A DNA stretch of 64,000 nt from Rikenellaceae bacterium (GTDB taxonomy: Bacteria; Bacteroidota; Bacteroidia; Bacteroidales; Rikenellaceae). Each line of letters opens with the position of its first letter. Within the stretch, counting starts at the first letter, position 1. The position numbers were made by a program, and so were the translations under genes. The notes under the pieces were generated by a model that saw only the letters and a list, made by a program, of their open reading frames with translations, was not told the DNA's origin and did not search any database. The stretch lies in NCBI GenBank assembly GCA_047174275.1, contig JBCQUC010000004.1, forward strand, positions 337 to 64,336. The letters are read 5' to 3'. Shown here piece by piece: positions 9,117-59,333 of this stretch.

Positions 9117-9413
9117 TGTTCGATAAAAATCCAACAAACCTTTGTAATGCACTGTAATATAACAGATTGTATGCGTTTGTAAAATCAGGGACTTGCTTTT
9201 GCGAATAGTCCCATTTGAGATACGAAATTGAAAATTTCGTCATCCTGAACTTGTTTCAGGATCTCAGCAAATGACAATGTAGTCACAGTAGTGTGTTAAT
9301 AAACAATAGTTTAGTAAATGGTGTAGGGATCCTGAAACAAGTTCAGGATGACGAAATTTTCAATTTCGTATCTCACGTATGACTTGCTAGAAACGTTTTA
9401 TCAGACACTAATA
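9111..9413. mobile_element. Family 1 nested REP-doublet element, copy A
   Basis: Outer TIR TTAGTGT(C/T)(C/T)GATAAAA with TA flanks; inverted REPs GTCATCCTGAACTTGTTTCAGGATC(T/C)C around a 60-nt spacer (9266-9325). Confidence 0.85.
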
Positions 9414-9430
9414 AAAAAACTTTAGAGGAT

Positions 9431-9670
9431 ATGAGTATTCAGAATGCAATAAATTTCTTGGCACGAGTTCAATCAGATGATGATTATAGACAATCGTGCT
9501 ACAAATTTCGAACGAAACAAGACCTCATGGAATATATACAGCAGGAGGGCTATAGCTTTTCGGATGGGGAGTTTGAAAATGCTATAAACCATCTCCTGCT
9601 GCGATGCTCAGATGCGTCACAGGGGTACGAAGTGCACCACCTGCAAAGCTGGTTTAGTCTGTTTCAGTAG
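9431..9670 (+). CDS. Nif11-like small protein
   Basis: MSIQNAINFLARVQSDDDYRQ...QEGYSFS-E resembles the Nif11 pattern (MS...FL..V..D..LR...GY.FT.EE); AGAGGA ribosome-binding site. Confidence 0.7.
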   Translation: MSIQNAINFLARVQSDDDYRQSCYKFRTKQDLMEYIQQEGYSFSDGEFENAINHLLLRCSDASQGYEVHHLQSWFSLFQ

Positions 9671-10061
9671 CCGATTTTAGTCGTTCGGTTACCAAATCTT
9701 TTAGTTCATTTAGACCCTCGATCATCCTATCAATTTGTGGATTGTCGGGGGTTCTGTATCCAAAGTCATCAATCGAGCAGATACCTTCGAACGAGCCTAC
9801 CAAGACAGCTGTCTTTCTAAGGCTGAGGCTCAAATCTGGCTCGAAATCGTTCACTTCGCGATAGAGCATAAGCGGAAGATGACTCGTTGCAATTGAGTCG
9901 TGGTGCGCCAACCATGCTATCATAAACTTCTCGAAACATATTGCTATCATATTGTATAGCAGATCGTTGTCGAATTTGCGATTCGGATTGCTAAATGATG
10001 ATGTTATTGTGTTGAGGTAACTATTAGCAAAGTCATAGTTATCTTTGGCTAACTCTTTCAT
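9654..10061 (-). CDS. Hypothetical protein with possible HEPN-like fold
   Basis: 135 aa, helical; ICFEKFMIAWL and TSHLPLML resemble the HEPN 'EK.LKA.L' and 'THDL..L' motifs. Confidence 0.6.
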   Translation of the reverse strand: MKELAKDNYDFANSYLNTITSSFSNPNRKFDNDLLYNMIAICFEKFMIAWLAHHDSIATSHLPLMLYREVNDFEPDLSLSLRKTAVLVGSFEGICSIDDFGYRTPDNPQIDRMIEGLNELKDLVTERLKSATETD

Positions 10062-10064
10062 AGT

Positions 10065-10232
10065 TATAGGGGAGTTCTAATAATTCCCTAATTTTAATTT
10101 TTAGTTAATAATTGCCCATTTTTGATTTTGCAAAAGTGGGTTGTAGTGGCTCTACCACCGATTTTTGAAAAATCGAAAAGGGGTGGTTAGTAACTGAAGG
10201 GTATTTTAGGGAATTATTAGAACTCCCCTATA
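10065..10232. mobile_element. Family 3 MITE, copy 2
   Basis: TIRs GGGGAGTTCTAATAATTCCC at both ends (element 10069-10228), TATA on both flanks. Confidence 0.8.
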
Positions 10233-11349
10233 TTGTTTTGTATATTGACAATAGTTCCGTAGGCTCTAAATCTCGTTTGTTGAGTGTGCACCAACGGCGT
10301 ACCTCCTCCAGAAGTCGAGGCAGGATCTCATCTCGGCAGACAACTCCCAACTCCTCTAGTGCAGATTTGAGGGTCGCCATACACGTATGTTTTCCTATCT
10401 TAAATCGACGCTCTGTGAGCCCAATCTCTTCGGCTTTGATAAGTTGATATGTTGATCGATCGCGTTTTAGATACTTCGTGTGGATCCCACTCTCGTGTGT
10501 TAAAACGAGCTCTCCGACAATAGGCTTCGATACGCTGTTTTTGCGTCCCGATATTCTCTCAACATAGCTGCAAATCGAAGGGAATAGAGTCTTGTTGAGC
10601 CCAGTTGTGATACCTGTACTCTTCTCTATAGCCATCACAACCTCCTCCATCGCTGCGTTTCCAGCCCTCTCGCCCAATCCATTAACTGTTGTGCTGAGAG
10701 CATCTGCCCCTGCCATCCATGCCGCTATCGTATTCGCACACGCCATTCCCAAGTCGTTGTGGGCGTGAAACTCAATCGAAATATCAGGGCTGAGATCCCT
10801 TATCGGGCGAATTAGATCTTGTGTCGAGAATGGGTTGAGCAGACCAACTGTATCTGCTAGGCGTATCCTCTTAGCTCCACTCTTAATTGTCTCAAATGCA
10901 AACTCCTCAAGGAAATGGCTGTTAGCACGAGAGGCATCTTGAGCCCCGACACTTACATAATCGAATGTCTCGTAACTCCTCGTAACAATCTCTTGAATCT
11001 CCTTGAGCACCCATTTACGACTCTTACCCATCACTCCAAGCAGTTTGTCTGAGACAGGGAACGATAGATGTATTCCATCCACGCCACTCTTACGTGCAAG
11101 TTCGATCTCCGAAGGCATAGCTCTGCACCATGCCAACATCCTAGCATCGAAATTTGCATCGGTTATCGCCTTGATCTCTTCGATCGCAGCACACCCCATT
11201 GCTGGGGTTCCAACCTCAAACTCACTGACTCCCGCTTCACACAACATCGAGACTAGAGCGAACTTTTCATCGAGGGTAAATGCTACCCCCGACGCTTGTT
11301 CACCGTCACGAAGTGTAGTGTCTACAAATATAGGGTGCTTATAACTCAT
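10228..11349 (-). CDS. nifV: Homocitrate synthase
   Basis: DTTLRDGEQ, LADTVG, HAHNDLGMA, NGLGERAGNA, HESGIH; nif context. Confidence 0.92.
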   Translation of the reverse strand: MSYKHPIFVDTTLRDGEQASGVAFTLDEKFALVSMLCEAGVSEFEVGTPAMGCAAIEEIKAITDANFDARMLAWCRAMPSEIELARKSGVDGIHLSFPVSDKLLGVMGKSRKWVLKEIQEIVTRSYETFDYVSVGAQDASRANSHFLEEFAFETIKSGAKRIRLADTVGLLNPFSTQDLIRPIRDLSPDISIEFHAHNDLGMACANTIAAWMAGADALSTTVNGLGERAGNAAMEEVVMAIEKSTGITTGLNKTLFPSICSYVERISGRKNSVSKPIVGELVLTHESGIHTKYLKRDRSTYQLIKAEEIGLTERRFKIGKHTCMATLKSALEELGVVCRDEILPRLLEEVRRWCTLNKRDLEPTELLSIYKTI

Positions 11350-11358
11350 ATATGCTCT

Positions 11359-11667
11359 TTAGTCACTAATCAAATACTTCTCGCATGCCTCTCCATCTTC
11401 GAGCGCATCAAGGATCTCGTCGATCGCATCCTCGCTATCCACGCCGCCATACCAGAAATTTAGAGGTTGGATAACCATTGCTGGTCCTTGTGAACATACA
11501 TTTAGACAGGCTGTAGTGCTTACCACGACATCTAGTCCGCGGTCGCTTGTCTCCTCGACAATATATTGTAAAAGTTGTGGTGCTCCCTTTTTGTTGCAAA
11601 CACCCAATGCCTCGCCGCTAACTCTGTACGAGTTGCATAGCAGAATGTGATACTGTGGCTTTTTCAT
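11359..11667 (-). CDS. Thioredoxin-like [2Fe-2S] ferredoxin
   Basis: LLCNSYR..C..KG and TACLNVCSQGP..WYG pattern. Confidence 0.88.
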   Translation of the reverse strand: MKKPQYHILLCNSYRVSGEALGVCNKKGAPQLLQYIVEETSDRGLDVVVSTTACLNVCSQGPAMVIQPLNFWYGGVDSEDAIDEILDALEDGEACEKYLISD

Positions 11668-11752
11668 ACCCTGATAATTTTAATGTTAGTTGGTTATTCT
11701 GTTTTGTATTTACTACTTGTTGAAATATAAGTTTTGCTCCGCATTGGAGATT

Positions 11753-11867
11753 GTTGATAGGTGGATGAAATTTTGAAGATGGCGTAGAGGGCTCTGGAAG
11801 GAGCATACTTTAAGTATGTGACTGAAGAGAACTCTATGGTATCTTTAAAATTTCGCCGCCTTGCAAC
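11753..11867 (-). repeat. Family 2 stem-loop/REP element, copy a (after nifB)
   Basis: Imperfect terminal IRs GTTGATAGGTGG...CCGCCTTGCAAC around a central palindrome GCATACTT-T-AAGTATG-TGAC; the shared flank extends to about 11730. Confidence 0.8.
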
Positions 11868-11887
11868 AATCTCTGTTGTGAAGTGGA

Positions 11888-13141
11888 TCAACCGCATCCC
11901 ATTGCGTTCCCCTTGCAGTTTGATCCGCACTTGAAAGCGTCGCGTTTGGCTATAGACTTAATTACGCGGTTGCTATAGATTCCATCCAATCCCTCATCTA
12001 TAAGTCCTGTCATCTCAACAACATTGAGCCCAGAGCTCTTTAGAACCTTAAGTGGTTTGTCACCTACGCCACTTACAAGTAGTGCGCGACAATCTGAAAG
12101 CATCTTTGAGAGCATCTCCCAGCGGATATCACCCAATCCACGATCTGGAGTTTTGCGACTCTCGACCCACTTAAATCCATTTGGCGTTTGGCGATAAATA
12201 TTGAGTGAAGCAGCCTCTCCAAGATGCATATTTACAAGCATACCCTCATTTGTAGCTACGGCAACATATGGACGACTATCTGTGTCAACATCCGAACGCT
12301 GAGCATACTCGCTCATCAGAGCATGCGCTTCGCTCATATCCTGTCCCAAAAGACCAGCGGCATCCGCACGACACCTTGCGCAGTGGCTCATAAGTTTAAG
12401 GTGGTCTGACGCTAATGTGCGAACACGGAAGACCATCTTTGGATCAGGTTGCTCTAGATTCTCGAAAGCGGTGTCGGCAACAGGGATAAGCGGAATGCAG
12501 TTTATAACATCAGCACCCAATTCAGAGCATACTCTAGCAACCTCCTTGATCCCATCCTCGTTGATCGTTGGGATTATAATACTGTTGATCTTTACAGTTA
12601 TACCCTTCGCCTTTAGCTTTGGGATACATGCTAACTGCTTGTCGAGGAGTCTCTTTGCTCCATCTTCGCCTCGATAGATATGCTTTCCATCGCGAACCCA
12701 TTTGTAGATCTTCGCAAGAACCTTTGTGTCGATACTATTTATTGTGATGGTTACGTGGCTAACATTTAGCTCAGCAATCTCATCAATATATGGCTCTAGA
12801 CCAAGTCCATTTGTTGATAGGCAGAAGATCTTATCAGGGAATCTCTCGTGTGCAAGACGCATAGTCTCAAGAGTCTCCTCAGGGTTTGCAAATGGGTCTC
12901 CAGGGCCTGCAATACCAATTACCGACAGGTTTGGCATACGCTTATCGAGCTCCTCAAGATAACCTACAGATTGTTTTGGTGTGAGAATTGTCGATGTCAC
13001 TCCTGGGCGACTCTCGCTTACGCAATCATATTTGCGATTGCAATAGTTGCACTGAATATTGCACTTTGGCGCAACGGGTAGGTGTACTCGTGCGTGGGTA
13101 TGTTTTGCTTCAGCGTCGAAGCATGGGTGCTTGTGTTCCAT
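11888..13141 (-). CDS. nifB: FeMo-cofactor radical SAM protein NifB with C-terminal NifX-like domain
   Basis: HPCF, PKCNIQCNYC (CxxxCxxC), ESRPGV, IAGPGDP, HCARCRADA. Confidence 0.97.
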   Translation of the reverse strand: MEHKHPCFDAEAKHTHARVHLPVAPKCNIQCNYCNRKYDCVSESRPGVTSTILTPKQSVGYLEELDKRMPNLSVIGIAGPGDPFANPEETLETMRLAHERFPDKIFCLSTNGLGLEPYIDEIAELNVSHVTITINSIDTKVLAKIYKWVRDGKHIYRGEDGAKRLLDKQLACIPKLKAKGITVKINSIIIPTINEDGIKEVARVCSELGADVINCIPLIPVADTAFENLEQPDPKMVFRVRTLASDHLKLMSHCARCRADAAGLLGQDMSEAHALMSEYAQRSDVDTDSRPYVAVATNEGMLVNMHLGEAASLNIYRQTPNGFKWVESRKTPDRGLGDIRWEMLSKMLSDCRALLVSGVGDKPLKVLKSSGLNVVEMTGLIDEGLDGIYSNRVIKSIAKRDAFKCGSNCKGNAMGCG

Positions 13142-13145
13142 GATC

Positions 13146-14450
13146 TTAAATGTATTTATACCCTACGGGTGAGTTCTCTTGTTTATACTCTATTAATGCG
13201 TTTACAACTCTATCAAATAGCTCTTGTGTGCCTCGATATCCGATCTTTAACTGACGAGCAGCTCCAAAACGGTCGTGGATCGGGAATCCAACACGTATGA
13301 TTGGGATCTTTAGTTCGCGAGCTATATAGTAACCTTTGCTGCTTCCCATCATAATGTCGGGTTTGATCTGGTTGAGTTTGGCGTGTATCGACTCAAAATC
13401 TGTATCGGTGAACGAATAGACCTCAAGTCCAATCTCCTTGCACCATGCTGATAGTGCCGAGACCAAATCTGCCTCTCCGTAGATTGCGATCTTTTTGCCG
13501 AATAGATATTTGTGAGCATCTACATACGCATCTATCAATCGTCCACGCTCCATCTGATACTTCTTTGGGATCTCAACTCCATACTCAGCACTGAGACACT
13601 CCATAAATCTATCCGAAGCCTCTATGCCAATTGGAATCGGCATCTGGGTGTTTTTTACTCCGCAATCACTCTCCAGCCACTCTCCACCTGTTGGGATACG
13701 CCCGCTCTCGGATGTACGTTTGTAGAACTGGTTGAATCTCTCTCCAAACTCAATGACAGCCTTTGCATCTCCACACTCCTCAATCTCTTTGAGTGGTGTT
13801 CCTCCACTTGGAATAAGTTGATACTCCGCTGTATATACATTGTCGAGTGACTCGCTGTAGTCGGGAAATACCGTCCCCGTAACACCAAAGTCAGCGATGA
13901 TCTCCTTGATATATCTGATATCGGCAGGTGTCACCATTCCTGGTAGAACAACTAGCTTCTCGGTTCGCTTAGTTGACTTTGCGAGTGTCTTTAATGCTGA
14001 GAGAACCGTATTGTGAAACCCTTCGGCATGCGATCCACAGTAGCTAGGTGTCGAACTATGGATAAATGCTGGAAGATTATCCGACATCTTTGCATCGCGG
14101 TAGTTTCTGATGTGACCTGGGATATCCTCACCAATTGTCTCCGAGAGACATGTAGAGGCGATTCCGATCACCTTTGGGTGGTACTGTTTTATTATATTGT
14201 CTATTCCTGTTATGAAGTTTTTACTTCCTCCATATACCGTCGACTCCTCCGAAAAGTTGCTCGATGCAATATCTACGGGCTCTTTGTAGTGGCTAATCAT
14301 ATATCGGCGGATATATGTTGCACACCCTTGTGATCCGTGAATAAGCGGAACACAACCCTCAATCCCCTTGAATACCAACGATGCTCCAAGTGGGGCGCAA
14401 AGTTTGCAAGCGTTGCGCGACGATACGTATGTTTTATCCTCTGTTTTCAT
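13146..14450 (-). CDS. nifN: Nitrogenase cofactor scaffold NifN
   Basis: CAPLGA, HGSQGCATY, TCLSETIGED, GFPIHDR. Confidence 0.92.
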   Translation of the reverse strand: MKTEDKTYVSSRNACKLCAPLGASLVFKGIEGCVPLIHGSQGCATYIRRYMISHYKEPVDIASSNFSEESTVYGGSKNFITGIDNIIKQYHPKVIGIASTCLSETIGEDIPGHIRNYRDAKMSDNLPAFIHSSTPSYCGSHAEGFHNTVLSALKTLAKSTKRTEKLVVLPGMVTPADIRYIKEIIADFGVTGTVFPDYSESLDNVYTAEYQLIPSGGTPLKEIEECGDAKAVIEFGERFNQFYKRTSESGRIPTGGEWLESDCGVKNTQMPIPIGIEASDRFMECLSAEYGVEIPKKYQMERGRLIDAYVDAHKYLFGKKIAIYGEADLVSALSAWCKEIGLEVYSFTDTDFESIHAKLNQIKPDIMMGSSKGYYIARELKIPIIRVGFPIHDRFGAARQLKIGYRGTQELFDRVVNALIEYKQENSPVGYKYI

Positions 14451-15792
14451 CGCTCTCCCTCCTATTTGTTTTTGTAAATTTCCATACTGGAGTCATCGCT
14501 GTGGCGTAGATCTCCTTTGCAAAGTTCAACATCCCCTCGTATCCTGCAAGAGCCTCTTTGCGTTCGTGGTTGTGGTCACAAAAACCGAGTCCAATCTTGT
14601 AGGCTATCGGGCGTTCCTTCACACCTCCGATGAATATATCAGCCTCTTTCTCCTTTACGAAGTGGGAGAGCTCAATAGGGTTCGAGTCATCGACGATCAC
14701 AGTCCCCTCGTCACAAAGATTCTTTATGAGCTCATAATCTTCGGTAGAGCCAGTTTGAGATCCGATGATAACAGTCTTTACTCCGATGAGTCGAAGAGCC
14801 TTCACCAAAGAGATCGCTTTGAATGCTCCGCCGACATATATCGCAGCTCGCTTACCCTCCAAAGCCTCTTTGTATGGTTTTAGTGCAGGGAGCAGTCGAG
14901 TCATCTCGTCGCGGACAATTTCGCGAGCCCTCTCCATCATCTCGTCATCTTTGAAGAATCGAGCAACTTCGTATAGCGCATCGCTCATATCCTCAATTCC
15001 GAAGTATGATACATGCATAAATGGTGTGCCATACTCCTCTTTCATCATCTTGGCAAGGTGGATCATCGAGCCAGAACACTGCACAACATTGAGCCCCGCT
15101 TTGTGGGCGTTGCGAATATCATCGACACGTCCATCGCCAGTGATTGTTGCATTTACGTGGACTCCCATTCGCTTGTAGTATTCGAGCAGAATCCAGAGTT
15201 CACCCGCAAGGTTGAAATCTCCCAAAATATTTATACTCTTCTTGGGAATGTCGCCATCTCCTGTGCCGACCAACTTAAAGAGTGATTCACAAGCTACTTT
15301 GTAGCCATCTTTTTTCGAGCCCTGAAAACCTGGAGCTTGAACAGGTATTGTTGTGACACCAGTCTCCTCGGTCACCTGTTTACAGATCTGCTCAACATCA
15401 TCGCCAATCACACCTACGATACATGTCGTATAGACAAATGCCGCCTTTGGCTGGTGTGCTGCGATAAGCTCTATGAGCGAAGCGTATAACTTCTTTTCGC
15501 CGCCGAAGATTACATCTTTCTCTTGAAGGTCGGTCGAAAAACTTGTTCTGTGAAGTTCGGGCCCCGATGAAAGTGACCCTCGAATGTCCCAAGTGTATGC
15601 AGCGCAACCTATTGGGCCATGAATTATGTGTAAAGCATCCGCAATGGGGTATAGCACAACTCGTGATCCGCAAAAGACACACGCTCGTTGACTCATACTT
15701 CCTGCAAGACTCACTTTGCCAGCCTGAACAGTTGGTGCATCTGCGCCACTTGTCGAGACTTGCCTCTCCCTCTCCTTTAAAATGTGAGCCAT
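14434..15792 (-). CDS. nifE: Nitrogenase cofactor scaffold NifE
   Basis: RACVFCGSR, HGPIGCAAY, TCIVGVIGDD, VQCSGS. Confidence 0.93.
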   Translation of the reverse strand: MAHILKERERQVSTSGADAPTVQAGKVSLAGSMSQRACVFCGSRVVLYPIADALHIIHGPIGCAAYTWDIRGSLSSGPELHRTSFSTDLQEKDVIFGGEKKLYASLIELIAAHQPKAAFVYTTCIVGVIGDDVEQICKQVTEETGVTTIPVQAPGFQGSKKDGYKVACESLFKLVGTGDGDIPKKSINILGDFNLAGELWILLEYYKRMGVHVNATITGDGRVDDIRNAHKAGLNVVQCSGSMIHLAKMMKEEYGTPFMHVSYFGIEDMSDALYEVARFFKDDEMMERAREIVRDEMTRLLPALKPYKEALEGKRAAIYVGGAFKAISLVKALRLIGVKTVIIGSQTGSTEDYELIKNLCDEGTVIVDDSNPIELSHFVKEKEADIFIGGVKERPIAYKIGLGFCDHNHERKEALAGYEGMLNFAKEIYATAMTPVWKFTKTNRRESDENRG

Positions 15793-15808
15793 AACATTGA
15801 TTTTTTTG

Positions 15809-16086
15809 TATTAGTGTCCGATAAAACTTTCCTAGCAGTCCCATGTGAGATACGAAATTGAAAATTTCGTCATCCTGAACTTGTTTCAGGATCCCTGCAT
15901 TATTGATTAAGTTGTTGTGTGCTAATGTATTACAGGGGTTGTGTTGTCGTTTGCTGAGATCCTGAAACAAGTTCAGGATGACGAAATTTTCAATTTCGTA
16001 TCTCAAGTGAGACTATTAAGCCCCTAATTCCACAAACATATACAATCTGTTACAAAGGTTTGTCGGGTTTTTGTCGGACAGTAATA
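15809..16086. mobile_element. Family 1 nested REP-doublet element, copy B (nifK-nifE gap)
   Basis: Same layered IRs as copy A in the opposite orientation; 60-nt spacer; TA flanks. Confidence 0.85.
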
Positions 16087-16105
16087 ATTTTTTTTGTTTT
16101 GTTAA

Positions 16106-16148
16106 TTCGAAGATCTCAACCCTCTAATTTGAGGTTGAAATCTTCGAA
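16106..16148 (-). promoter_or_regulatory. Stem-loop immediately 3' of nifK
   Basis: TTCGAAGATCTCAACCCTC-TAATTT-GAGGTTGAAATCTTCGAA, 9 bp after the nifK stop; no U-tract on the minus strand. Confidence 0.6.
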
Positions 16149-16157
16149 AATATTGTA

Positions 16158-17537
16158 TTACATTTGGAACTCAATAGTCTCCTCTGTGCACTCTCTATCA
16201 CGGTGAGATAGAAGCTCATGGATGATTGAAGTTACCATGTTCGCAGCTCCCTTATAACCAGTCTTAGCGAAGTAGTTGTGACCAGCACGATCGGCGATTG
16301 GGAATCCCATACGATAGAATGGTGTGTTCTCGTCGCGAGCGATATACTTACCATAAGTATTTCCGATCAACAAATCAACACCCTCTTGTTTGATCCACTG
16401 GTGAAGTTGGAACATATCGGCATTTGCACCGCTCTTCCACTTAGCCTCTGGGATATCCTTTAGTAGCTCAGCCATACGCTCCTCGAACTCCTTACCTGGA
16501 GTACCCGTTACGATGTATACTGGACGCATATCCATAGATACAAGGAACTCAACCATTGGGATAAGTGTGTCTGGATCGCCCCACAATGCTACACGCTTGC
16601 CATACAAGTGAACCGAAGCATCTGAGATCAAATCGAGCAACTGACCGCGCTCGTAAGTCAACTCATCCGATACTGGAACGTTTGCGTGGCGGCTGATAGA
16701 TGTCAAGAAACGATCTGTAGCCAAGAATCCGATTGGAATATCAAGAACCTCGAATGGAACTTTACACTGATTCTCCATCTTGATACAAGCGTCGGTTGTA
16801 GTGTATGAACCCAAACCTACAGATACCTTGCTGTCACCGCTTAGGCGGATATCTGCAATTTTAGCACCTCCATCTGGGTACATCTTGTATGTTCCAGTCA
16901 TTGGCCCATCCAATACTCCTGTCATATCTGGGAACATGAATGTGCGACTCTCCATAACCTTGCAAAGTCTCTTGATCTCAGCTTGATCCGATGGCTCCAT
17001 CCAACCCGAAATAAGGTTGATTACGTTGCGTCTCTTGCCTGTTTTTGTGGCAAACGACTTCACCATCGAAGTTACCTGATTTGCATATCCAGTGACGTGT
17101 GTTCCAACATAACTTGGTGTGTTACAGTAGATAACCTCCTTGCCAGCTGGGATAAATCCATCTTCTGCAGCCTTCGATACAATCTGAGTCATATCATCAC
17201 CAATTGTCTCCGAAAGACAAGTTGTGTGAACTGCGATAACCTCTGGGTCGTAAGTTGTGAAGATCGTATTGATCGCCTGAACCAAGTTGGCAGAACCTCC
17301 AAATACTGAAGAACCCTCAGAGAATGAACTTGTAGCTGCCATGATTGGCTCTTTGAAGTGACGTGTAAGTGCACTTCGGTGGTATGAGCAACATCCTTGT
17401 GAACCGTGGCTATGTGGCAAACACCCGTGGATACCGAGTGCCGCGTACATTGCACCAACTGGTTGACAAGTCTTTGCTGGGTTGACCGTCAGAGCTTTTC
17501 TTTCGATCTCCTTATCTGTTGTGTGTCTTAATAACAT
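16158..17537 (-). CDS. nifK: Nitrogenase MoFe protein beta chain
   Basis: NPAKTCQPVGA, HGSQGCCSY, TTCLSETIGDD P-cluster ligands. Confidence 0.97.
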   Translation of the reverse strand: MLLRHTTDKEIERKALTVNPAKTCQPVGAMYAALGIHGCLPHSHGSQGCCSYHRSALTRHFKEPIMAATSSFSEGSSVFGGSANLVQAINTIFTTYDPEVIAVHTTCLSETIGDDMTQIVSKAAEDGFIPAGKEVIYCNTPSYVGTHVTGYANQVTSMVKSFATKTGKRRNVINLISGWMEPSDQAEIKRLCKVMESRTFMFPDMTGVLDGPMTGTYKMYPDGGAKIADIRLSGDSKVSVGLGSYTTTDACIKMENQCKVPFEVLDIPIGFLATDRFLTSISRHANVPVSDELTYERGQLLDLISDASVHLYGKRVALWGDPDTLIPMVEFLVSMDMRPVYIVTGTPGKEFEERMAELLKDIPEAKWKSGANADMFQLHQWIKQEGVDLLIGNTYGKYIARDENTPFYRMGFPIADRAGHNYFAKTGYKGAANMVTSIIHELLSHRDRECTEETIEFQM

Positions 17538-17550
17538 AATCTTTCCCTCT

Positions 17551-19179
17551 TTAATTTAGTACATAGCTTGCCTCAACATATGCCTCACGCTCCCATGGTG
17601 CCTTCAAATATTTGTGAAGTGTAGCGCATGAGATCATCTCGATATCTTTGTAGAAGTTGATAGCACCTGCAAATCCTGCATATGGGCCACCAGAATCGTA
17701 GTTGTGAAGCATCTTCAATGGAATACCCATCTTCTGAGCAACATACTTCTCCTTGATACCTGCACAGAATACATCTGGGTGGTATAGCTCGATCAACTTC
17801 TCCATCTCGTAGTGGCTCAAATCGTCGATAACGAGTGTGCCCTTCTGCATATCTGCCATAAGTCCCTCGTAGTCGTTGAACTCGCCGCCATTCGAGATCT
17901 TTGTCAAGTGCTCATCTGGTTTACGCTTGTTGTAACGCTCCTCATCTTTGTAGACTGTGATCTCCTCGATGTTACGGCTATCGGCATCAACTTGGATTGT
18001 TGGAATCACGCGGCGACCCTCGTAGTCATCACGGTGACCGAACTCATATCCAGCTGCAAGAGTTGTCATACCCAACTCGTTGAATAGCTCTTGGTAGTGG
18101 TGAGCGCGAGATCCACCGACAAACAACATCGCTGTCTTGCCAACTGTCTTTTTGCGAGCCTGCTCAGCTGCAGCCTCAACACGTACCATCTCCTCAGCGA
18201 TAACCTTCTCGATCTGGTCGATAAGCTCCTGATCCTCGAAGTACTCTCCGATTTTGCGAAGTGATTTAGCTGTTGCCTCAGCACCGATGAAGTTACACTT
18301 AGTCCAAGGAATACCGAACGATGTATTCAACATCTCAGCTACGTAGTTGATTGAACGGTGACACATAACAAGACTCAAATCTGCTGTGTGAGCACGCTCA
18401 AACTTAGTCATTGTAGCATTTCCCGACATTGTAGCGATTAGCTCAATTCCGCAACGATCCATCAAATCCTCAATTACGAAAGCGTCACCTCCGATGTTGT
18501 ACTCTCCAAGCAGATTGACACGATACTTGTGCTTGCCCTCGATTGTGTCATCCTTACCGATACAGTTCTTGTAGAGCTGATTGTTCGCGATGTGGTGACC
18601 AGCCGACTGAGATACTCCACGATATCCCTCGCAAGAGAAACCGATGATGTTAACCCCAGGGAACTCCTCCTCCATCTGGCGAGCTACACGGTGAACATCA
18701 TCACCGATAAGACCTACAGGACAAGTTGAGAATACTCCGATCGCCTTTGGGTGGAATAGCTCCATCGCCTCGCGGATCGCCTGCTTTAGCTTCTCCTCAC
18801 CACCGAATACGATGTTTGAGTCCTGCATATCAGTTGAGAAACAGTATGGGATGTAGTTCTCATCCATGTCAGACTCTGGGCGAGTCTGGTTACGACGTGT
18901 AAGCCATGAGTAGAATCCGCAACCGATCGGGCCGTGTGTGATATTTACGATATCACGAGTTGGTCCCATGATTACTCCCTTACAACCTGCGTAAGTACAA
19001 CCACGCTGTGTGATGATACCTGGCACTGTACGTACATTGGCTTGGATCTTTGGGATCAGATCTGGGTCGTTTACGGCAACCGCCTTAGAACGTTTTTTTG
19101 CTACCTTCTTCGGGTACTTCTCAGCTACCGCCTCGACGAACTCCGAAAAATCTGGTAATTTCTTTATATCTTCTTTCAT
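17551..19179 (-). CDS. nifD: Nitrogenase MoFe protein alpha chain (long, group II type)
   Basis: RGCTYAGC, HGPIGCG, TCPVGLIGDD, SAGHHIAN, MCHRSINY, GGSRAHHY, LHNYDSGGPY; about 50-aa insertion (RVIPTIQVDADSRNIEE...). Confidence 0.97.
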   Translation of the reverse strand: MKEDIKKLPDFSEFVEAVAEKYPKKVAKKRSKAVAVNDPDLIPKIQANVRTVPGIITQRGCTYAGCKGVIMGPTRDIVNITHGPIGCGFYSWLTRRNQTRPESDMDENYIPYCFSTDMQDSNIVFGGEEKLKQAIREAMELFHPKAIGVFSTCPVGLIGDDVHRVARQMEEEFPGVNIIGFSCEGYRGVSQSAGHHIANNQLYKNCIGKDDTIEGKHKYRVNLLGEYNIGGDAFVIEDLMDRCGIELIATMSGNATMTKFERAHTADLSLVMCHRSINYVAEMLNTSFGIPWTKCNFIGAEATAKSLRKIGEYFEDQELIDQIEKVIAEEMVRVEAAAEQARKKTVGKTAMLFVGGSRAHHYQELFNELGMTTLAAGYEFGHRDDYEGRRVIPTIQVDADSRNIEEITVYKDEERYNKRKPDEHLTKISNGGEFNDYEGLMADMQKGTLVIDDLSHYEMEKLIELYHPDVFCAGIKEKYVAQKMGIPLKMLHNYDSGGPYAGFAGAINFYKDIEMISCATLHKYLKAPWEREAYVEASYVLN

Positions 19180-19190
19180 AGGAATCTTAT

Positions 19191-19556
19191 TTAATCGAGT
19201 GTGATATCTCCAGTCTCACCTGTGCGGACACGAACTGATTCGAATGTGTTGACCACGAAGATCTTACCATCTCCACTCTTGCCCGTTTGGTTAACCTTAA
19301 TAATTGTCTCTACAGCCAAATCCTTCTTGTCGTCAGTTACAACAAGCGTAATCATACGCTTAGATTTTAGACGTGGATTCTGCTGAATATGCTCGTGGTG
19401 CTCAGGGTCGATACCCTCAGCCTTCTCCAAATCGCCGTGACCCTTACCACGTCCCACAACTGGAAGAGCTGTGAACGATGGTAGATCGACTGCAGAGAGA
19501 GCCTCCTTAGTCTCGGTCATCTTCGCGATACGGATGATTGCCATTATTAACTTCAT
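19191..19556 (-). CDS. nifI2: NifI2, PII-like nitrogenase switch-off protein
   Basis: GRGKG, PKR-like SKRMI, TGKSGDGKIFV, RVRTGE; located between nifH and nifD. Confidence 0.88.
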   Translation of the reverse strand: MKLIMAIIRIAKMTETKEALSAVDLPSFTALPVVGRGKGHGDLEKAEGIDPEHHEHIQQNPRLKSKRMITLVVTDDKKDLAVETIIKVNQTGKSGDGKIFVVNTFESVRVRTGETGDITLD

Positions 19557-19588
19557 AGTAATCTAATTTATTAGTCGTTTTTTGTAAA

Positions 19589-19630
19589 GTTGATAGGTGG
19601 ATGAAATTTGAAATTTCGTCGCATTGCAAC
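19589..19630 (-). repeat. Family 2 element, internally deleted copy b (after nifI1)
   Basis: GTTGATAGGTGGATGAAATTT-GAAATTTCGTCGCATTGCAAC: only the terminal arms remain. Confidence 0.7.
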
Positions 19631-19631
19631 T

Positions 19632-19958
19632 TTACACCTCCATGAATCCTGAAGAGATAGTATAGCACTCCTCAACTGGTGTAACGAAGATCTTACCATC
19701 TCCGAACTGTCCTGTTGCGCTAGAGCGAGCTGAGTTTATGATTGTCTCAATCACAAAATCTTTGTCCTTCTTTTTGATAGTAATCATCAACATCTCCTTT
19801 GGAAGCTCATCATACGTTACGTTTCCAGCCTTGATACCACGCTGCTTACCACGTCCATATACTGCGATCTTTGTAACGGCTGGGAATCCAGCGTCCATCA
19901 ACGACTTCATTACTACTGCCGATTTTTCTGGTCTTACGATTGCTCTAATTAAATACAT
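19632..19958 (-). CDS. nifI1: NifI1, PII-like nitrogenase switch-off protein
   Basis: AIVRPEK, GRGKQRG, YDELPKEML, GQFGDGKIFV. Confidence 0.88.
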   Translation of the reverse strand: MYLIRAIVRPEKSAVVMKSLMDAGFPAVTKIAVYGRGKQRGIKAGNVTYDELPKEMLMITIKKKDKDFVIETIINSARSSATGQFGDGKIFVTPVEECYTISSGFMEV

Positions 19959-19996
19959 TGTCTTGATTTTTTATTTGGTTTGTGTTTTGCTCAAAA

Positions 19997-20111
19997 GTTG
20001 ATAAGTGGATGAGATCTTGTGCATCGTAAGCTGGCGGAGGAGGGAGCATACTTTGGGTATGTGACCGATTGCCGACAGCTTGGGATGTGCAAGATCTCAC
20101 CACCTTGCAAC
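19997..20111 (-). repeat. Family 2 element, copy c (after nifH)
   Basis: GTTGATAAGTGG...GAGCATACTTTGGGTATGTGAC...CCACCTTGCAAC with divergent inner arms. Confidence 0.75.
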
Positions 20112-20117
20112 TTTTGT

Positions 20118-20975
<858 letters not shown>

Positions 20976-21008
20976 TTAAGTTATCTATTTTCTTATGCTG
21001 TTTAATCT

Positions 21009-21024
21009 TGCATTAAGTGTGCCA
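21009..21024 (-). promoter_or_regulatory. Sigma54 (-24/-12) promoter of nifH
   Basis: Minus strand TGGCAC-ACTTA-ATGCA with correct GG-N10-GC spacing, about 65 bp upstream of the ATG. Confidence 0.85.
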
Positions 21025-21155
21025 AAAAGTCTACTTGGATGAAATAAATTCAAAATTATTTTGTAATACTCTGTTTTATAGCGAGTTGTAGTCGTGGTAT
21101 TTTTTGACTGATTTTTGGTTTAAATAATCTGAGTTATTAAGTATATTTAAAATAT

Positions 21156-21197
21156 TACATTTCTGTAGCTTTTCTTATGTGGATGTAGCAAAATGTA
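21156..21197. promoter_or_regulatory. Candidate activator-binding region of the nifH promoter
   Basis: TACA-TTTC-TGTA at 21156-21167 plus TGTA half-sites at 21184 and 21194. Confidence 0.5.
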
Positions 21198-21298
21198 GGA
21201 AATTGGTTTTGAATGTTATTTTTGTCTGCTAATTTTTATTTAGCACTTTCGTTGCATCACGTTTAGACTCTGAGAGGGTCGCTATTTTGAATCACCTT

Positions 21299-21539
21299 TA
21301 TTAGTGTTCGATAAAACTTTTCTAGCAGTCCTACTTGAGATACGAAATTGAAAATTTCGTCATCCTGAACTTGTTTCAGGATCTCTACATCATTGAGTAA
21401 GCTATTGCTTATTAGTATATTACAGAGGCGATATTGTCATTTGCTGAGATCCTGAAACAAGTTCAGGATGACGAATCCGTTGGATTCGATAACATGGTGC
21501 CAATAAAGTTGTTACAAGTGTTGTTATCGGACACTGATA
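21299..21539. mobile_element. Family 1 nested REP-doublet element, copy C
   Basis: Outer TIRs with TA flanks, REP doublet, 60-nt spacer; an extra REP remnant follows at 21545-21557. Confidence 0.85.
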
Positions 21540-21570
21540 AACTCGTTTCAGGATCTCCGCAGAGCTAATT

Positions 21571-22320
21571 TTAATATGTTACAGTCGAAAGCCTACACTC
21601 TATAATAGAGTTGCATTTTTTGTGTCGTTTAAAGAAGAAGGATCTTCCGCCACAACTCTCCGTATGTGTCGATATAACTCGATCCTCCCCCTTTGAAAAT
21701 CCAAAGTGTAGGATTGAGGTCGCCATAGCTGTAATATCTGCTGGGTCGTGACACACCATTAGTGTGATGCTTCCAAGCATTTTGTGTGCCTGCTTGATAC
21801 TCTCTCTGAGTGACTCCTTTAACTCCCAATCTAGGGCGGAGAATGGTTCATCGAGTAGCAACATTGATGGCTCTGAAGCTATCGCACGAGCCAAAGCGAC
21901 ACGTTGCTTCTGCCCACCTGAGAGCTGTTGAGGGTATCGAGAGTGGAGTGCGCCGATATTGAAACACTCAAGCAACTCCATTATCTTCTGTTCATCTTTG
22001 TTTGGTTGAGCGTACAGAATCTGCTCAAATACCGTCATATTTGGAAATAGCGCAAAATCCTGAAACATCAACCCTGTTCTACGCTTCGATGCTGGCACAA
22101 ATATTCTCTTGTCGGTGTCGCACCACACCTCTCCATCAAATACTACACGACCTCTGTGAGGCTTCACAAGCCCCGATATAATCCTTAGTAGGGTAGTCTT
22201 GCCAATTCCCGATGCACCCTGCAAACAGACAATATCCCCCAAATTTAGATCTGCACGTACCTCCAAAAGAGATCTACCTTCGACTGTGTAGAGTGGCTGT
22301 TTGATATCAATTTCCAACAT
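21571..22320 (-). CDS. modC: Molybdate ABC transporter ATPase
   Basis: GASGIGKT, LSGGQKQRVALARA, LLLDEPF; mod context. Confidence 0.9.
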   Translation of the reverse strand: MLEIDIKQPLYTVEGRSLLEVRADLNLGDIVCLQGASGIGKTTLLRIISGLVKPHRGRVVFDGEVWCDTDKRIFVPASKRRTGLMFQDFALFPNMTVFEQILYAQPNKDEQKIMELLECFNIGALHSRYPQQLSGGQKQRVALARAIASEPSMLLLDEPFSALDWELKESLRESIKQAHKMLGSITLMVCHDPADITAMATSILHFGFSKGEDRVISTHTESCGGRSFFFKRHKKCNSIIECRLSTVTY

Positions 22321-23002: not shown

Positions 23003-23071
23003 GAAATTTCCCCCAAAATTTATAAATTAGAGATTATTGCAAAACGGTAGTTTTGCTCCGCTATGGAGAGT

Positions 23072-23185
23072 GTTGATAGGTGGATGAAAATTTAAAGATG
23101 GCGTAGAGGGCCCTGAAAGGAGCATACTGAAGTATGTGACTGAAGAGAACTCTGCGTTATCTTTGAATTTTCGCCGCCTTGCAAC
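23072..23185 (-). repeat. Family 2 element, copy d (after modA)
   Basis: Near-identical to copy a, including the left flank AGTTTTGCTCCGC. Confidence 0.8.
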
Positions 23186-23193
23186 GCTCTCAA

Positions 23194-28490: not shown

Positions 28491-28505
28491 ATGCAATATA
28501 TTGAT

Positions 28506-28710: not shown

Positions 28711-28757
28711 AATCCAAGAATAAGAGGTTACCCTCCCCCATACATAATATATAACAG

Positions 28758-43244: not shown

Positions 43245-43276
43245 TTAATTCATTTTTGCCAAATTAGGGGCTTGCC

Positions 43277-43536: not shown

Positions 43537-43539
43537 AAA

Positions 43540-56000: not shown

Positions 56001-56001
56001 T

Positions 56002-56412
56002 ATGGCTGCTAGTTGCGAAATATGTGGAGAGCCGATACCTCCGCACTCTCGTATCTGCCCTAATTGCCTCCTGAATGCCTCTTACTCAGCTGAAATCCAA
56101 GGGTTTGAATCACCTGTTAAGATGCTATCAATAATGAGATCTTCGGTCGATGAGTATCTCTCGATCAAATCTCCAAAAATATGGAGTGATAGGGTAGAGT
56201 CTCGGGAGATAATTGCAACCTTTGAGTGCGTTCGAGATGTTGTGATGATCGCCTTTGGTGATAACTCCGATGTTGTGGATGCAGTTGCAGCGATGGAGGA
56301 TCTCTTCTATGAGAGAATAGAACAACACCGACAATACCAAAAGCGTTGTCGGTGTCTGCTTATTATATCTGTTATAGCCCTGATATTCTCTTTATTTGCG
56401 CTAATTTATTGA
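56002..56412 (+). CDS. Hypothetical zinc-ribbon protein with C-terminal TM
   Basis: CEICG..CPNC at the N-terminus, hydrophobic C-terminus; starts 1 bp after the ABC-F stop. Confidence 0.6.
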   Translation: MAASCEICGEPIPPHSRICPNCLLNASYSAEIQGFESPVKMLSIMRSSVDEYLSIKSPKIWSDRVESREIIATFECVRDVVMIAFGDNSDVVDAVAAMEDLFYERIEQHRQYQKRCRCLLIISVIALIFSLFALIY

Positions 56413-59032
56413 GTGCTTCAAGAGGGGTTAATGAGTCTATATCTAACCCTTTAACTTGGTTGCGAATCTCGATAAGCACAGGGTCATCGAGCTGGAACAT
56501 AGAGAGTTGAATGCCACCTCTGTTTTTGTCGGCTGTTGCGATCTTTGGCGCAATATCTCTGTCTGTTGTATCCCCACTTCTGTGCTCTAATTCCAAGTTT
56601 TTGAGAATCTCATCGGCACGCGAGACCACCGATGTTGGCATTCCTGCCATTCTTGCAACATGGATTCCGAAGGATCTCTCGGCACTTCCTCGCTCCAATT
56701 TACGTACAAAGATAATCGTATTCTCCATCTCTTTGACACTCACATGGTAATTTTTCACGCGTGGACATAGCTCCTCCATCTCGTTGAGCTCATGGTAGTG
56801 TGTCGCAAATAGAGTCTTGGCGCGAGCAGTAGGGTGGTTGTGCAGATACTCCACCATCGCCCACGCGATCGAGATTCCATCATAAGTGCTTGTTCCACGT
56901 CCGATCTCATCGAGCAGAACAACGCTTCGATCCGATATATTATTTAGAATCGATGCCGACTCCAACATCTCCACCATAAATGTCGACTCTCCTTGCGATA
57001 TATTATCCGAAGCACCAACACGTGTAAATATCTTATCAACAACCCCAATCTCAGCCGATGCCGCAGGGACAAAAGAGCCCATCTGAGCCATCAATATAAT
57101 AAGTGCAGTTTGGCGAAGAAGAGCCGATTTACCCGACATATTCGGGCCAGTTATCATGATTATCTGCTGCTCTTCATCATCCAAAATAACATCGTTTGGC
57201 ACATATTTCTCGCCAATTGGCATCAAGGTCTCGATCACTGGGTGTCGCCCCTGTTTGATCTCGATTCGTTTTCCGTCGGTGAGTTGAGGGCGCGTATATC
57301 GACCCTCGCACGCCATTCTCGCGAAGGATTGGAGGATGTCGACTCTCGCTATAGATTGTGCATTTCGTTGAAGCGATGCTAGAGATCGGGTTATAAACTC
57401 AATTATTTGTGCAAATAATCTCTGTTCGATCTCTATTATTCGACCCTCTGCACCGAGGATCTTCTCTTCGTACTCCTTTAATTCAGCTGTGATATATCGC
57501 TCCGCAGATGTAAGGGTCTGTTTTCTGACCCACTCTTCGGGAACACAATCTTTGTGTGTATTTCGAACCTCTATATAGTAACCAAATACATTGTTGAAGC
57601 TGATCTTAAGCGATGGAATGCCAGTGCGTTGACTCTCTCGCTCAACGATCTTCTGTAACACATCTTTTCCGTGGAGTGCCACTCGACGCAGATCATCGAG
57701 CTCTGGATCGACACCGTCAGCTATCACACCACCCTTTAAGATATTATTTTGTGGATCGGGATATATCTCCTCAGCAAGGCGTTTGTGGATCTCGGGAAGT
57801 GGATCTATCGACGATGATAGGTCGCTAATAACTTGAACTTCGGAGCTCTCCAATACATCTTTTAATTGGAGGATAGCCTCCAATGAACACTTTAGCTGAA
57901 CCAACTCGCGCGGTGTAACTCTTTGAGCTGCAATACGCGCCGCAATCCTCTCAATGTCGCCAATGAGAGCAATCTGATCCTCGATACTCATCGCTAAGTC
58001 TCGATCCATAACCATCGCTGAAACTATGTCTAAGCGACGATTTATCCTCTCAACATTGCGAATAGGCATCGCAACCCAACGACGCAACATTCTACCCCCC
58101 ATCGGTGTGCGAGTCCTATCAATTACATTTGCAAAGCCTACACGTCCCTCTGAGCCATCCGTAGATCCACCCTGAGCAAAGAGCTCCAAATTTCGTATCG
58201 TGAATCTATCAATCCAGACATGTTCGCTCTCGTCAATTCTCGATATCGAGTTGATATGCGCAATCTGTTTATGCTCCGTAAATTCGAGATATGCAAGTGT
58301 CGCTCCAGCGGCAGAGATTGCATTTCCCATACGCTCGACACCAAATCCTTTGAGCGATTTTGTTCCAAATTGAGCAGATAGTTTCTCGCGGCTCACATCC
58401 TCCGAGAAGAGCCACTCATCGAGTTTATAGGTGTATAATTTGTGCCCAAAGGCGTTCGCAAAACGTAGATCGTGCCCTCTTTGGTATAGAACCTCTTTTG
58501 GCGCGAAGTTCGAGATTAATTTATCAACATATGCATCACTTCCCTCCGAACAGTAGAACTCTCCAGTCGATATATCGAGAAAAGCAACTCCTGTGCTCTT
58601 ATCCCCGAAATATACCGATGCCAGATATCTATTCTCCTTGGTTGTGAGTGAGTTTTCGCCCATTACAACACCAGGGGTTACAAGCTCCACAACACCGCGT
58701 TTGACTAACCCTTTGACCATCTTTGGATCTTCCAATTGCTCACAAATAGCAACTCGCGCACCTGCACGAACCAACTTCGGAAGGTAGGTCTCAACAGAGT
58801 GGTATGGGAATCCTGCTAACTCCACAAAGCTAGCTGCTCCATTGGCACGTCGTGTTAGGGTGATACCAAGAATTTGGCTGGCGCGTATAGCATCCTCGCC
58901 AAATGTCTCGTAGAAATCTCCCACGCGAAAGAGTAGTATAGCATCGGGGTGTACCGCCTTGATGTTGTAGTATTGCTTCATCAAAGGTGTCTCGACATAT
59001 TTTTTCTCAGCTTTTTTTTGCTCTTTGCTCAC
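56372..59032 (-). CDS. mutS: DNA mismatch repair protein MutS
   Basis: TPLMKQY, FRVGDFYE, TGPNMSGKS, DEIGRGTST, FATHYHEL. Confidence 0.97.
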   Translation of the reverse strand: MSKEQKKAEKKYVETPLMKQYYNIKAVHPDAILLFRVGDFYETFGEDAIRASQILGITLTRRANGAASFVELAGFPYHSVETYLPKLVRAGARVAICEQLEDPKMVKGLVKRGVVELVTPGVVMGENSLTTKENRYLASVYFGDKSTGVAFLDISTGEFYCSEGSDAYVDKLISNFAPKEVLYQRGHDLRFANAFGHKLYTYKLDEWLFSEDVSREKLSAQFGTKSLKGFGVERMGNAISAAGATLAYLEFTEHKQIAHINSISRIDESEHVWIDRFTIRNLELFAQGGSTDGSEGRVGFANVIDRTRTPMGGRMLRRWVAMPIRNVERINRRLDIVSAMVMDRDLAMSIEDQIALIGDIERIAARIAAQRVTPRELVQLKCSLEAILQLKDVLESSEVQVISDLSSSIDPLPEIHKRLAEEIYPDPQNNILKGGVIADGVDPELDDLRRVALHGKDVLQKIVERESQRTGIPSLKISFNNVFGYYIEVRNTHKDCVPEEWVRKQTLTSAERYITAELKEYEEKILGAEGRIIEIEQRLFAQIIEFITRSLASLQRNAQSIARVDILQSFARMACEGRYTRPQLTDGKRIEIKQGRHPVIETLMPIGEKYVPNDVILDDEEQQIIMITGPNMSGKSALLRQTALIILMAQMGSFVPAASAEIGVVDKIFTRVGASDNISQGESTFMVEMLESASILNNISDRSVVLLDEIGRGTSTYDGISIAWAMVEYLHNHPTARAKTLFATHYHELNEMEELCPRVKNYHVSVKEMENTIIFVRKLERGSAERSFGIHVARMAGMPTSVVSRADEILKNLELEHRSGDTTDRDIAPKIATADKNRGGIQLSMFQLDDPVLIEIRNQVKGLDIDSLTPLEALNKLAQIKRISGL

Positions 59033-59054
59033 GGTGTTGAATTTTTGTTGTTTT

Positions 59055-59333
59055 TATTAGATGAAATTTTCTAGCAGTCCCACTTGAGATACGTTCCGCA
59101 AGGAACGTCATCCGAACTTGTTTTATTAGTGTCCGATAAAAGTTTGCGATTTATGTTGGTACCTCGTTTCGACTCACCAGAGTCGTCATCCTGAACTTGT
59201 TTCAGGATCCCTAACTATCAGTGTTTCAGATTCTTTGTAGAGATCCTGAAACAAGTTCAGGATGACGAATCCGTTGGATTCGATAACGTGGTGCCAATAA
59301 ATTTGCCGTTACTCTTTTTTTTAGATGCCAATA
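59055..59333. mobile_element. Family 1 element copy G (59124-59333) adjoining or inserted into a truncated copy (59055-59123)
   Basis: Left arm plus a broken REP, then a fresh TA-TTAGTGTCCGATAAAA terminus and a full REP doublet. Confidence 0.75.

Follow-up and report, generated by a model that had tools for sequence, protein, structure and literature searches.

Alternative mini-hairpins in a fixed register at the tag of a CGTC-type palindromic repeat in a Rikenellaceae genome

Why should nearly every copy of a short palindromic repeat be preceded, directly outside its CGTC tag, by a small perfect hairpin that keeps its position from copy to copy while its sequence changes? The question is raised by 64,000 nucleotides of contig JBCQUC010000004.1 (positions 337 to 64,336; hereafter, the window), which belong to an Alistipes-like Rikenellaceae bacterium whose assembly (GCA_047174275.1, here also G000) comprises 2.21 Mb in 116 contigs at 43.8% GC and 98.9% completeness. 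The repeat is a CGTC-tagged repetitive extragenic palindromic (REP) sequence, and the mini-hairpin that abuts it is a feature in a fixed register that is constrained in its structure. We describe this arrangement, the mobile element that carries it and a possible role in the cleavage of single-stranded DNA.

A mini-hairpin abutting the REP tag

Five variants of the mini-hairpin occur in the window: CGAAATT-GAA-AATTTCG (type AAATT) in seven copies, at 9223, 9352, 15853, 15982, 21343, 28550 and 35730; CGTTCC-GCAA-GGAACG (TTCC) at 35857 and 59092; CGACTCT-GAA-AGAGTCG (ACTCT) at 28652 and 43291; CGAATCC-AAC-GGATTCG (AATCC) at 21472, 43467 and 59266; and CGACTC-ACCA-GAGTCG (ACTC-N4) once, at 59170. 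The number expected in dinucleotide shuffles, which served as the chance baseline, is 0 for each variant, and a core of the form TCATCCTGAACTTG[T/A]TTCAGGATC stands directly 3' of every one of these hairpins. All five had been recognized in an earlier interpretation made without database searches (the sequence-only reading), at or within 3 nt of the sites given here, some of its hairpin coordinates being off by 1–3 nt.

Across the genome, this 24-mer core occurs 737 times when up to three mismatches are allowed (345 inverted pairs and 47 singles), that is, at a density of approximately 1 per 3 kb. A perfect hairpin (stem of at least 5, loop of 3–5) that ends exactly at the CG preceding TCATCC is found at 667 of the 732 scorable core copies (91%), compared with 0.7% of random genome positions, and displacing the test register by 3 nt or more abolishes this signal; as the sequence-only reading had claimed, the hairpins thus occupy a fixed rather than a random position. 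The genome-wide catalogue that it had envisaged, carried out here, sorts the hairpins into five families (AAATT, 342 copies; TTCC, 128; ACTCT, 103; AATCC, 83; and ACTC-N4, 28), which are 16–17 nt long, mostly with a stem of 7 and a loop of 3 or a stem of 6 and a loop of 4, and more than 97% of all genome copies of each type abut a core. Its description of the variants as unrelated in sequence holds for AAATT and TTCC, whereas the other three families share CGA...TCG and differ by compensated changes. Folded as single-stranded DNA, all five window variants are predicted to form two adjacent hairpins with only TC unpaired between them (−10.4 to −12.1 kcal/mol; z −4.1 to −5.2): the mini-hairpin, whose closing pair in the predicted fold is the CG of the tag, and a second hairpin, CGTC-ATCCTGAA-CTTGW-TTCAGGAT-C, with an 8-bp stem and a 5-nt loop.

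This second hairpin places the core among the CGTC-tagged REPs, a class defined by a CGTC (or TGTC/CCTC) tag that is unpaired, an 8–9-bp stem whose first residues are a complementary A/T pair and a 4–5-nt loop (PMC3733652). The stem here (ATCCTGAA/TTCAGGAT) starts with AT and its loop is CTTGT or CTTGA; the unpaired tag is the class trait from which the core departs, given that the CG is predicted to pair in 91% of arms and only TC is left free. The likeness to the CGTC REPs described previously (Di Nocera, De Gregorio & Rocco 2013, BMC Genomics 14:522; PMC3733652), a class reported in Bacteroidetes, covers tag, stem, loop and short tail, the predominance of inverted dimers, structured spacers, a location in gaps between unidirectional or convergent genes, and the lack of a REP-associated tyrosine transposase (RAYT); REP dimers inside palindromes were also noted in that study (H. 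neapolitanus, A. variabilis and T. roseum). Unlike in those families, a small hairpin of several alternative sequences here abuts each tag and is predicted to pair its CG, the dimers are cargo of miniature inverted-repeat transposable elements (MITEs) with terminal inverted repeats (TIRs) and target-site duplications (TSDs), and the copy density is very high.

The core is restricted to a small clade, 14 of the 376 genomes of the genus, with 736 copies in G000 followed by 105, 72, 50, 29, 22 and fewer; the tag string CGTCATCC... likewise occurs 736 times in G000, and TGTC variants are found in G290 and G291. Core stems covary among the species (ATTCTGAA, ATGCTGAA, ATCCTGGA, ATCCCGAA and, with the same loop, ATTGCGGA). 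The inverted doublets, long hairpins, hundreds of copies and lineage-specific expansion recall the REPIN/RAYT system (Bertels & Rainey 2011, PMC3116915); however, the tag there is GTAG and here CGTC, and the RAYT/Y1 (HUH) transposase family PF01797 gave no match in six repeat-bearing genomes (G000, G291, G068, G057, G298 and G367), with positive controls, which speaks against the HUH/Y1 partner that the sequence-only reading had considered.

REP dimers ride in IS4-type MITEs

The inverted REP dimers ride in non-autonomous MITEs of the IS4 family, and it is through this carriage that approximately 370 copies were reached. The MITE has a 19-bp TIR, TTATTAGTGTCCGATAAAA, with 317 copies in the genome, which lies 42–45 nt from the core on the short side and ~111 nt from it on the long side, and a perfect 7-bp direct repeat surrounds 47 of the 83 complete copies, compared with 56 of 1641 (3.4%) when flanks are mismatched. 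The end CATTAGTGTCCCATAAAAA of a 1.3-kb insertion sequence (IS) corresponds to the TIR; this IS is located at contig ends in many Bacteroidales and contains an open reading frame (ORF) of 387 aa encoding an IS4-family transposase (DUF4372 and DDE_Tnp_1; NF033592 at E = 5e-79). No assembled homologue of this cognate transposase was found in G000 by tblastn, although a copy may simply be unassembled, and a search of the assembly for multi-copy ORFs as a route to the IS returned none. With their IS4-type inverted ends and 7-bp TSDs, which explain their mobility, and with a structure-only hairpin slot, these elements differ from the E. coli BIMEs, Neisseria NIMEs and S. pneumoniae BOX elements, which they otherwise resemble as combinatorial mosaics of short modules around a conserved hairpin in intergenic or intra-operon positions.

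Given the distances between TIR and core, the mini-hairpin begins 25–28 or ~94 nt inside the element; it lies within the MITE arm as one of its modules, between an outer linker and the REP tag, and is not a terminus. At the orthologous sites of two window elements (E and F, below) in the nearest other species, G057 and GCA_044434065 (~78% DNA identity), the flanking genes are 4–8 nt apart, that is, the empty sites lack the whole 245- and 285-nt composites. The position inside a TIR-bounded element and the empty sites both speak against the view of the hairpin as an element end or an observed joint.

The hairpins might instead serve transposition from within, either because the IS4-family transposase needs them or because local folding lets a long palindrome survive replication. 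Long perfect palindromes are unstable, which would favour the latter. Such instability has also been discussed previously (PMC3733652). Hairpin and core are, moreover, more uniform than the TIR itself, and the MITE prefers hairpin loops: 55 of the 317 TIRs abut a split core (ATCCTGAACTTGWT|TIR) of a CGTC REP, with a 7-bp duplication of ACTTGTT or ATCAAGT (for example, window 59108–59124). We nevertheless regard a cis-element for transposition as improbable, because the parent IS ends in other Bacteroidales lack the hairpin-plus-REP module, because K-type arms, in which a related end (ACTAGTGRTGCGTTAACTTTTCC) abuts CG and core directly and the mini-hairpin is absent, were transposed all the same, and because solo 175-bp copies with TSDs lack the REP dimer.

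These solo copies belong to a group of approximately ten palindromes that consist of one flank (flank A, below), one mini-hairpin and the inverted flank (A') and include no REP dimer, some of them complete 175-bp MITEs with TSDs (C4:54887–55061, C79:15744–15918, C50:44160–44334, C108:~15330 and others in G000). Either these palindromes represent the ancestral state, still unoccupied, or they arose by deletion between two mini-hairpins, the stems of which are also direct repeats.

Two candidates for an autonomous element were rejected. A pair of arms 2 kb apart on C104 (17437–19484, L064) encloses a housekeeping ATPase of the Mrp/NUBPL type, a gene bracketed by two single inverted half-elements (each an arm plus half an L-type centre), and a contig with two IS ends (L129) proved to be a TonB-receptor fragment between two IS copies. 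We also observed a contig of another metagenome-assembled genome, G063:C204 (L039 and L040), that is 99.9–100% identical to C82 and C11 of G000 and bridges both; it is probably binning carry-over from the same organism. The 4.4-kb bridge, which is absent from G000, contains IS4-family (NF033591) and IS5-family transposase genes, the ends of which are unrelated to the MITE.

Constraint on pairing and a candidate nuclease

Whether the mini-hairpins are maintained can be judged from the variation among their copies. Per-site minor-allele frequencies are 0.1–1.6% in the stems, 4–17% in the loops and 3–17% in the adjacent 16-nt linker, that is, in the same copies variation is 10- to 100-fold lower in stems than in loops and flanks; in the core the frequency is 0.5–2%, nearly all of it from the T/A site in the core loop. 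In the TTCC tetraloop the terminal G and A are kept and the middle two bases are free (GCAA, GTTA, GAAA, GTAA, GCTA and GATA), the loop GAA is flipped to TTC in 14 AAATT arms, and nine ACTCT copies of G000 carry the compensated pair CGGCTCT...AGAGCCG. Other species have hairpins in the same register: CGAAATTTTAATTTCG and CGGCTC-CCCA-GAGCCG in G292, the second of which lies in an arm homologous to the ACTC-ACCA arm of G000 and thus represents a compensated change from A-T to G-C; CGGCTTT-GGA-AAAGCCG, together with members of the TTCC and AAATT families, in G057; and CGTTACC-CC-GGTAACG in G291, beside a core with a different, compensated stem. From the low stem frequencies, the nine compensated copies and the other hairpins of G057, G292 and G291, we infer that selection maintains the pairing of the stems rather than their sequence, in agreement with the earlier proposal that structure is conserved while sequence is replaced at a fixed position. 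A broader rule, under which REPs of this kind would directly follow a hairpin of any sort, found no support in G291, where the mean upstream fold energy equals that of the control and only one REP subfamily has the mini-hairpin.

Selection on pairing has to be weighed against neutral hitch-hiking, which together with cleavage–repair scars (below) is the most serious rival. Under neutral hitch-hiking, the hairpins would be subfamily-specific pieces of the arms, made uniform by recent bursts of a few masters and by gene conversion seeded in the core. A pure burst would freeze all parts of the arm alike, however, whereas the stems vary far less than the linker and their own loop; compensated pairs within and between species, and the fact that G057 and G291 independently gained unrelated hairpins at this position, are likewise unexpected. 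Although hairpin type is locked to linker type, a few arm/centre combinations dominate, TTCC has a single origin and massive expansion is confined to this species (737 copies versus at most 105 elsewhere), we consider neutral hitch-hiking rather unlikely.

The hairpins had been called interchangeable, which is true within one outer-flank superfamily and not across superfamilies. Flank A (AGTCCCAYTTGAGATA) is combined with AAATT or TTCC only and flank B (TTGGCACC..GTT.T) with AATCC, ACTCT or ACTC-N4 only, with 0 crosses between hairpin type and superfamily among ~640 arms. On the inner side, hairpin types are shuffled against three centre types distinguished by the length between cores (S, 56 nt; M, 88 nt; and L, 133–135 nt), and the T/A variant of the core loop tracks the centre, not the hairpin (28 of 28 AAATT-L arms), a linkage compatible both with site-specific exchange at CG|TC and with homologous exchange in the core. 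The simplest account of this shuffling would be homology-dependent exchange through the shared 24–26-nt core, with conversion of the hairpin itself only between arms that are homologous to either side of it. Outer and inner parts would equally be shuffled by a site-specific joint at CG|TC, which the pattern allows but does not require. The flank haplotypes of TTCC arms are a subset of those of AAATT arms (position −8 is T in 63 of 67 TTCC and 123 of 200 AAATT arms), a pattern compatible with a single replacement en bloc and subsequent amplification. This nesting, and the locking of hairpin type to flank superfamily, contradict ongoing or free swapping, and no repeat differences were found between G000 and GCA_047174505 (99.986% identity over 22 kb). 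The idea that the hairpin is the TSD of an inserted core–centre–core unit was also discarded, as the two arms of an element, each read inward, would then differ in their loops, GAA in one and TTC in the other, whereas 311 arms have GAA and 14 have TTC.

For the GIY-YIG enzyme that the sequence-only reading had named as a possible partner, G000 offers two candidates by sequence, both outside the window and adjoining these repeats: single-domain ORFs of 92 and 91 aa with 60% mutual identity, in which Pfam GIY-YIG (70 and 67 bits) is the sole domain. One (C63:563–841, minus strand) has a REP dimer on one side and a single REP on the other, with CTTGT-loop cores; the second (C36:50097–50372, plus strand) is located 65 nt upstream of an L-type dimer with CTTGA loops, a distribution that hints at two enzyme/motif pairs. 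Their closest homologues in the genus (58–63% identity; G058, G068, G287 and G291) each stand between CGTC hairpins whose compensated stems are specific to the species, and homologues at 54% identity or less are not so bracketed.

CGTC-tagged REPs were without a known partner enzyme until the Ssn nucleases (single-domain GIY-YIG proteins of ~94 aa, CDD cd10448) were described in 2025. SsnA, of 94 aa, binds the CGTC hairpin (NTS) as single-stranded DNA only and cuts neither double-stranded DNA nor RNA; binding needs the C after the palindrome and cutting needs three bases 5' of the palindrome (PMC11893778). The cut falls 3–4 nt 5' of the CGTC tag (a 20-nt product was obtained from an oligonucleotide with the tag G at position 26), and SsnA binds but does not cleave a 28-nt oligonucleotide that begins 3 nt beyond the cut (PMC11893778). 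Our repeats resemble this Ssn/NTS/SRM system (Nat Commun 2025, PMC11893778) in that a single-domain GIY-YIG gene of similar length (~94 aa there, 91–92 aa here) is flanked by CGTC hairpins and motif-rich genomes encode the enzyme or, here, a candidate for it. They differ in an AT-richer stem, which by eye falls outside the published SRM search string, in that a competence role is not known in Rikenellaceae, and in the hairpin over the cut site, which is not described there.

When the published SsnA cut position is transferred to these repeats (it derives from that protein and not from the two candidates here), the predicted cut falls inside the 3' half-stem of the mini-hairpin, which would thereby place the scissile position and half of the tag (CG) in a stem. 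We suggest that the mini-hairpin may act in cis to modulate how the resident Ssn-like nucleases cleave, most likely by shielding the site, because Ssn acts on single strands only; such a role would explain both the free sequence and the fixed register, given that any stable hairpin would suit. That a cis structure over the predicted Ssn cut site modulates cleavage is the explanation that we favour, although tentatively and short of calling it probable. A fuller version, in which the mini-hairpin is a sequence-free, structure-only cap that hides or presents the scissile site and was acquired independently by different MITE lineages, is conceivable but more doubtful. With respect to the single-strand cleavage or joining site of the sequence-only reading, the fixed register and a candidate nuclease agree with it in part, whereas the hairpin is not an element end, its swapping is not ongoing and the HUH family PF01797 gave no match.

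In a sharpened form of the sequence-only reading, the same nuclease could have produced the hairpins rather than be modulated by them. Ssn-like breaks at CG|TC, followed by fold-back or templated repair that rewrites the palindrome just 5' of the tag, would replace the sequence while the hairpin form recurs, and a candidate nuclease with a reported cut 3–4 nt 5' of the tag is present. Identity between arm types does stop exactly at the tag, everything 5' of CGTC differing by arm type or species with YG kept, and between identical flanks the AAATT and TTCC hairpins differ as whole blocks, ~470 copies containing no intermediate form. Simple fold-back, however, predicts a REP–hairpin–REP order with tags on both sides, which is not seen; there are only five stem families among 737 arms, each amplified with its linker; TTCC looks like a single event; the stems predate species splits; and no polymorphism separates the two assemblies of the same strain. 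Cleavage–repair scars are in our view unlikely.

Several points weigh against a modulator of Ssn-like cleavage. Most REPs of G291 and 9% of G000 arms (those with K-type ends) have no mini-hairpin, so that it is not required for REP maintenance, and hundreds of unshielded motifs are tolerated in Neisseria, so that the need for a shield is not evident. The low variation of the stems could in part be accounted for by recent amplification from few masters and gene conversion. As to the enzyme, G292, G298 and G367 carry 13–29 cores yet no close match to the GIY-YIG ORFs, the best PDB relative is only 1zg2, at E = 0.0025, and the cut offset comes only from Neisseria and Wolbachia homologues, among which it differs by at least 1 nt (PMC11893778).

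If the cap interpretation is true, the mini-hairpin would be a cis-encoded modulator of a site-specific single-strand nuclease, a visible sign that a repeat family and its nuclease are in conflict or co-operate, and would supply a natural on/off design rule for Ssn enzymes as tools for single-stranded DNA. Should the hairpins play no part in cleavage, the repeats would amount to a MITE/REP mosaic of an ordinary kind, albeit one of unusual density and modularity. In either case, the locus shows how a REP family has multiplied in a 2.2-Mb genome without a RAYT, by way of IS4-type MITEs that themselves target REP loops. The natural series of compensated hairpins in one register, on the predicted cut site, near two candidate Ssn genes and in a phylum unstudied for this system, turns the question of why hairpins stand at the tag into one of direct oligonucleotide cleavage. 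The feature is real, with overwhelming statistical support, and its parts are of known kinds (CGTC REP/SRM, Ssn-like GIY-YIG gene and IS4 MITE); we rate the capped-tag arrangement as apparently new, given that one with alternative hairpins was found neither in the studies of CGTC REPs (PMC3733652) and Ssn (PMC11893778) nor in literature searches on Alistipes MITEs and Bacteroidetes REP/RAYT repeats.

Composite elements of the window and related loci

Element A (9109–9413) is a complete composite, an IS4-type MITE enclosing a CGTC-REP inverted dimer, with the TIR TTATTAGTGTTCGATAAAA ... TTTTATCAGACACTAATAA, two AAATT mini-hairpins (9223–9239 and 9352–9368) and REP cores at 9240–9263 and 9328–9351; its predicted fold is a single long hairpin (−129 kcal/mol; z −16). 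Its long side (9109–9220), like that of many arms across the genome, contains a conserved module of ~75 nt (…CCTTTGTAATGCGCTGTAATATAATAGATTATACATGTTTGTAAAATCAGGGGCTTACTTTT…) with TTTG motifs.

Element B (15807–16086; AAATT at 15853–15869 and 15982–15998) lies between nifK and nifE, from which it follows that such repeats are tolerated within an operon; the nif cluster as a whole (7075–23946; nifA-like activator, nifHDK, nifEN, nifB and nifV) contains composite repeats. A location inside the nif operon is what might be expected if transcribed hairpins stabilized or processed mRNA 3' ends, as proposed for enterobacterial REP/BIME sequences. The distribution of core sites points the same way (25.6% between convergent genes versus 11.7% genome-wide, and 5.8% versus 11.6% between divergent genes), as does the GCAA loop closed by C-G, which is a GNRA tetraloop. 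Other loops are not of the GNRA type (GTTA, GCTA, GATA, AAC and ACCA), however; the whole element would thermodynamically form one long RNA duplex and not local hairpins, both orientations would be present on each transcript, so that a strand preference cannot be read, and SsnA is inactive on RNA (PMC11893778). A role at the RNA level accordingly seems to us to have little chance of being the explanation, and modulation of cleavage in single-stranded DNA remains the one that we favour.

Four further composites combine different hairpin types in their two arms. Element C (21297–21539) has a left arm of flank A with AAATT (21343–21359) and a right arm of flank B1 with AATCC (21472–21488); element D (28501–28712), with a short centre, has AAATT at 28550–28566 and ACTCT at 28652–28668; and element E (35671–35913), between a rhomboid-family gene and mutL, has AAATT at 35730–35746 and TTCC at 35857–35872. 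Element F (43253–43537; ACTCT at 43291–43307 and AATCC at 43467–43483) has an L-type centre (43333–43466) with two more hairpins, which share the base TCCCGAATTT...AATCTCGGGA and have the apices CGCC-AAA-GGCG and AGT-GAA-ACT, one of the two including a T.G pair. A similar pair of stem-loops has been described in the spacer of CGTC-3 dimers of A. tumefaciens.

The nested locus G (59050–59320) begins with TTCC at 59092–59107, followed by a REP core the loop of which is split by a second MITE (TIR at ~59124) that itself has ACTC-ACCA at 59170–59185 and AATCC at 59266–59282; insertion of the MITE into REP loops explains such nesting. IS1397, in E. coli, and ISKpn1 insert into REP (PU) loops, so that the targeting of a REP-hairpin loop by an insertion element (here its MITE) has a parallel, whereas the element here is an IS4-family MITE that duplicates 7 bp (ACTTGWT) and itself carries REP dimers. 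In G292 (L070 and L071), the same MITE occupies the loop of a REP whose stem differs (ATTGCGGA) but whose loop is identical.

The cores of G291, by contrast with this MITE-borne organization, are single or tandem units with no MITE. Some form head-to-tail REP arrays (L052, ~17435–17550; L053, 11572–12215) with a period of 44–64 nt, in which subfamilies with compensated stems are interleaved, and some units stand directly after terminator-like hairpins with T runs.

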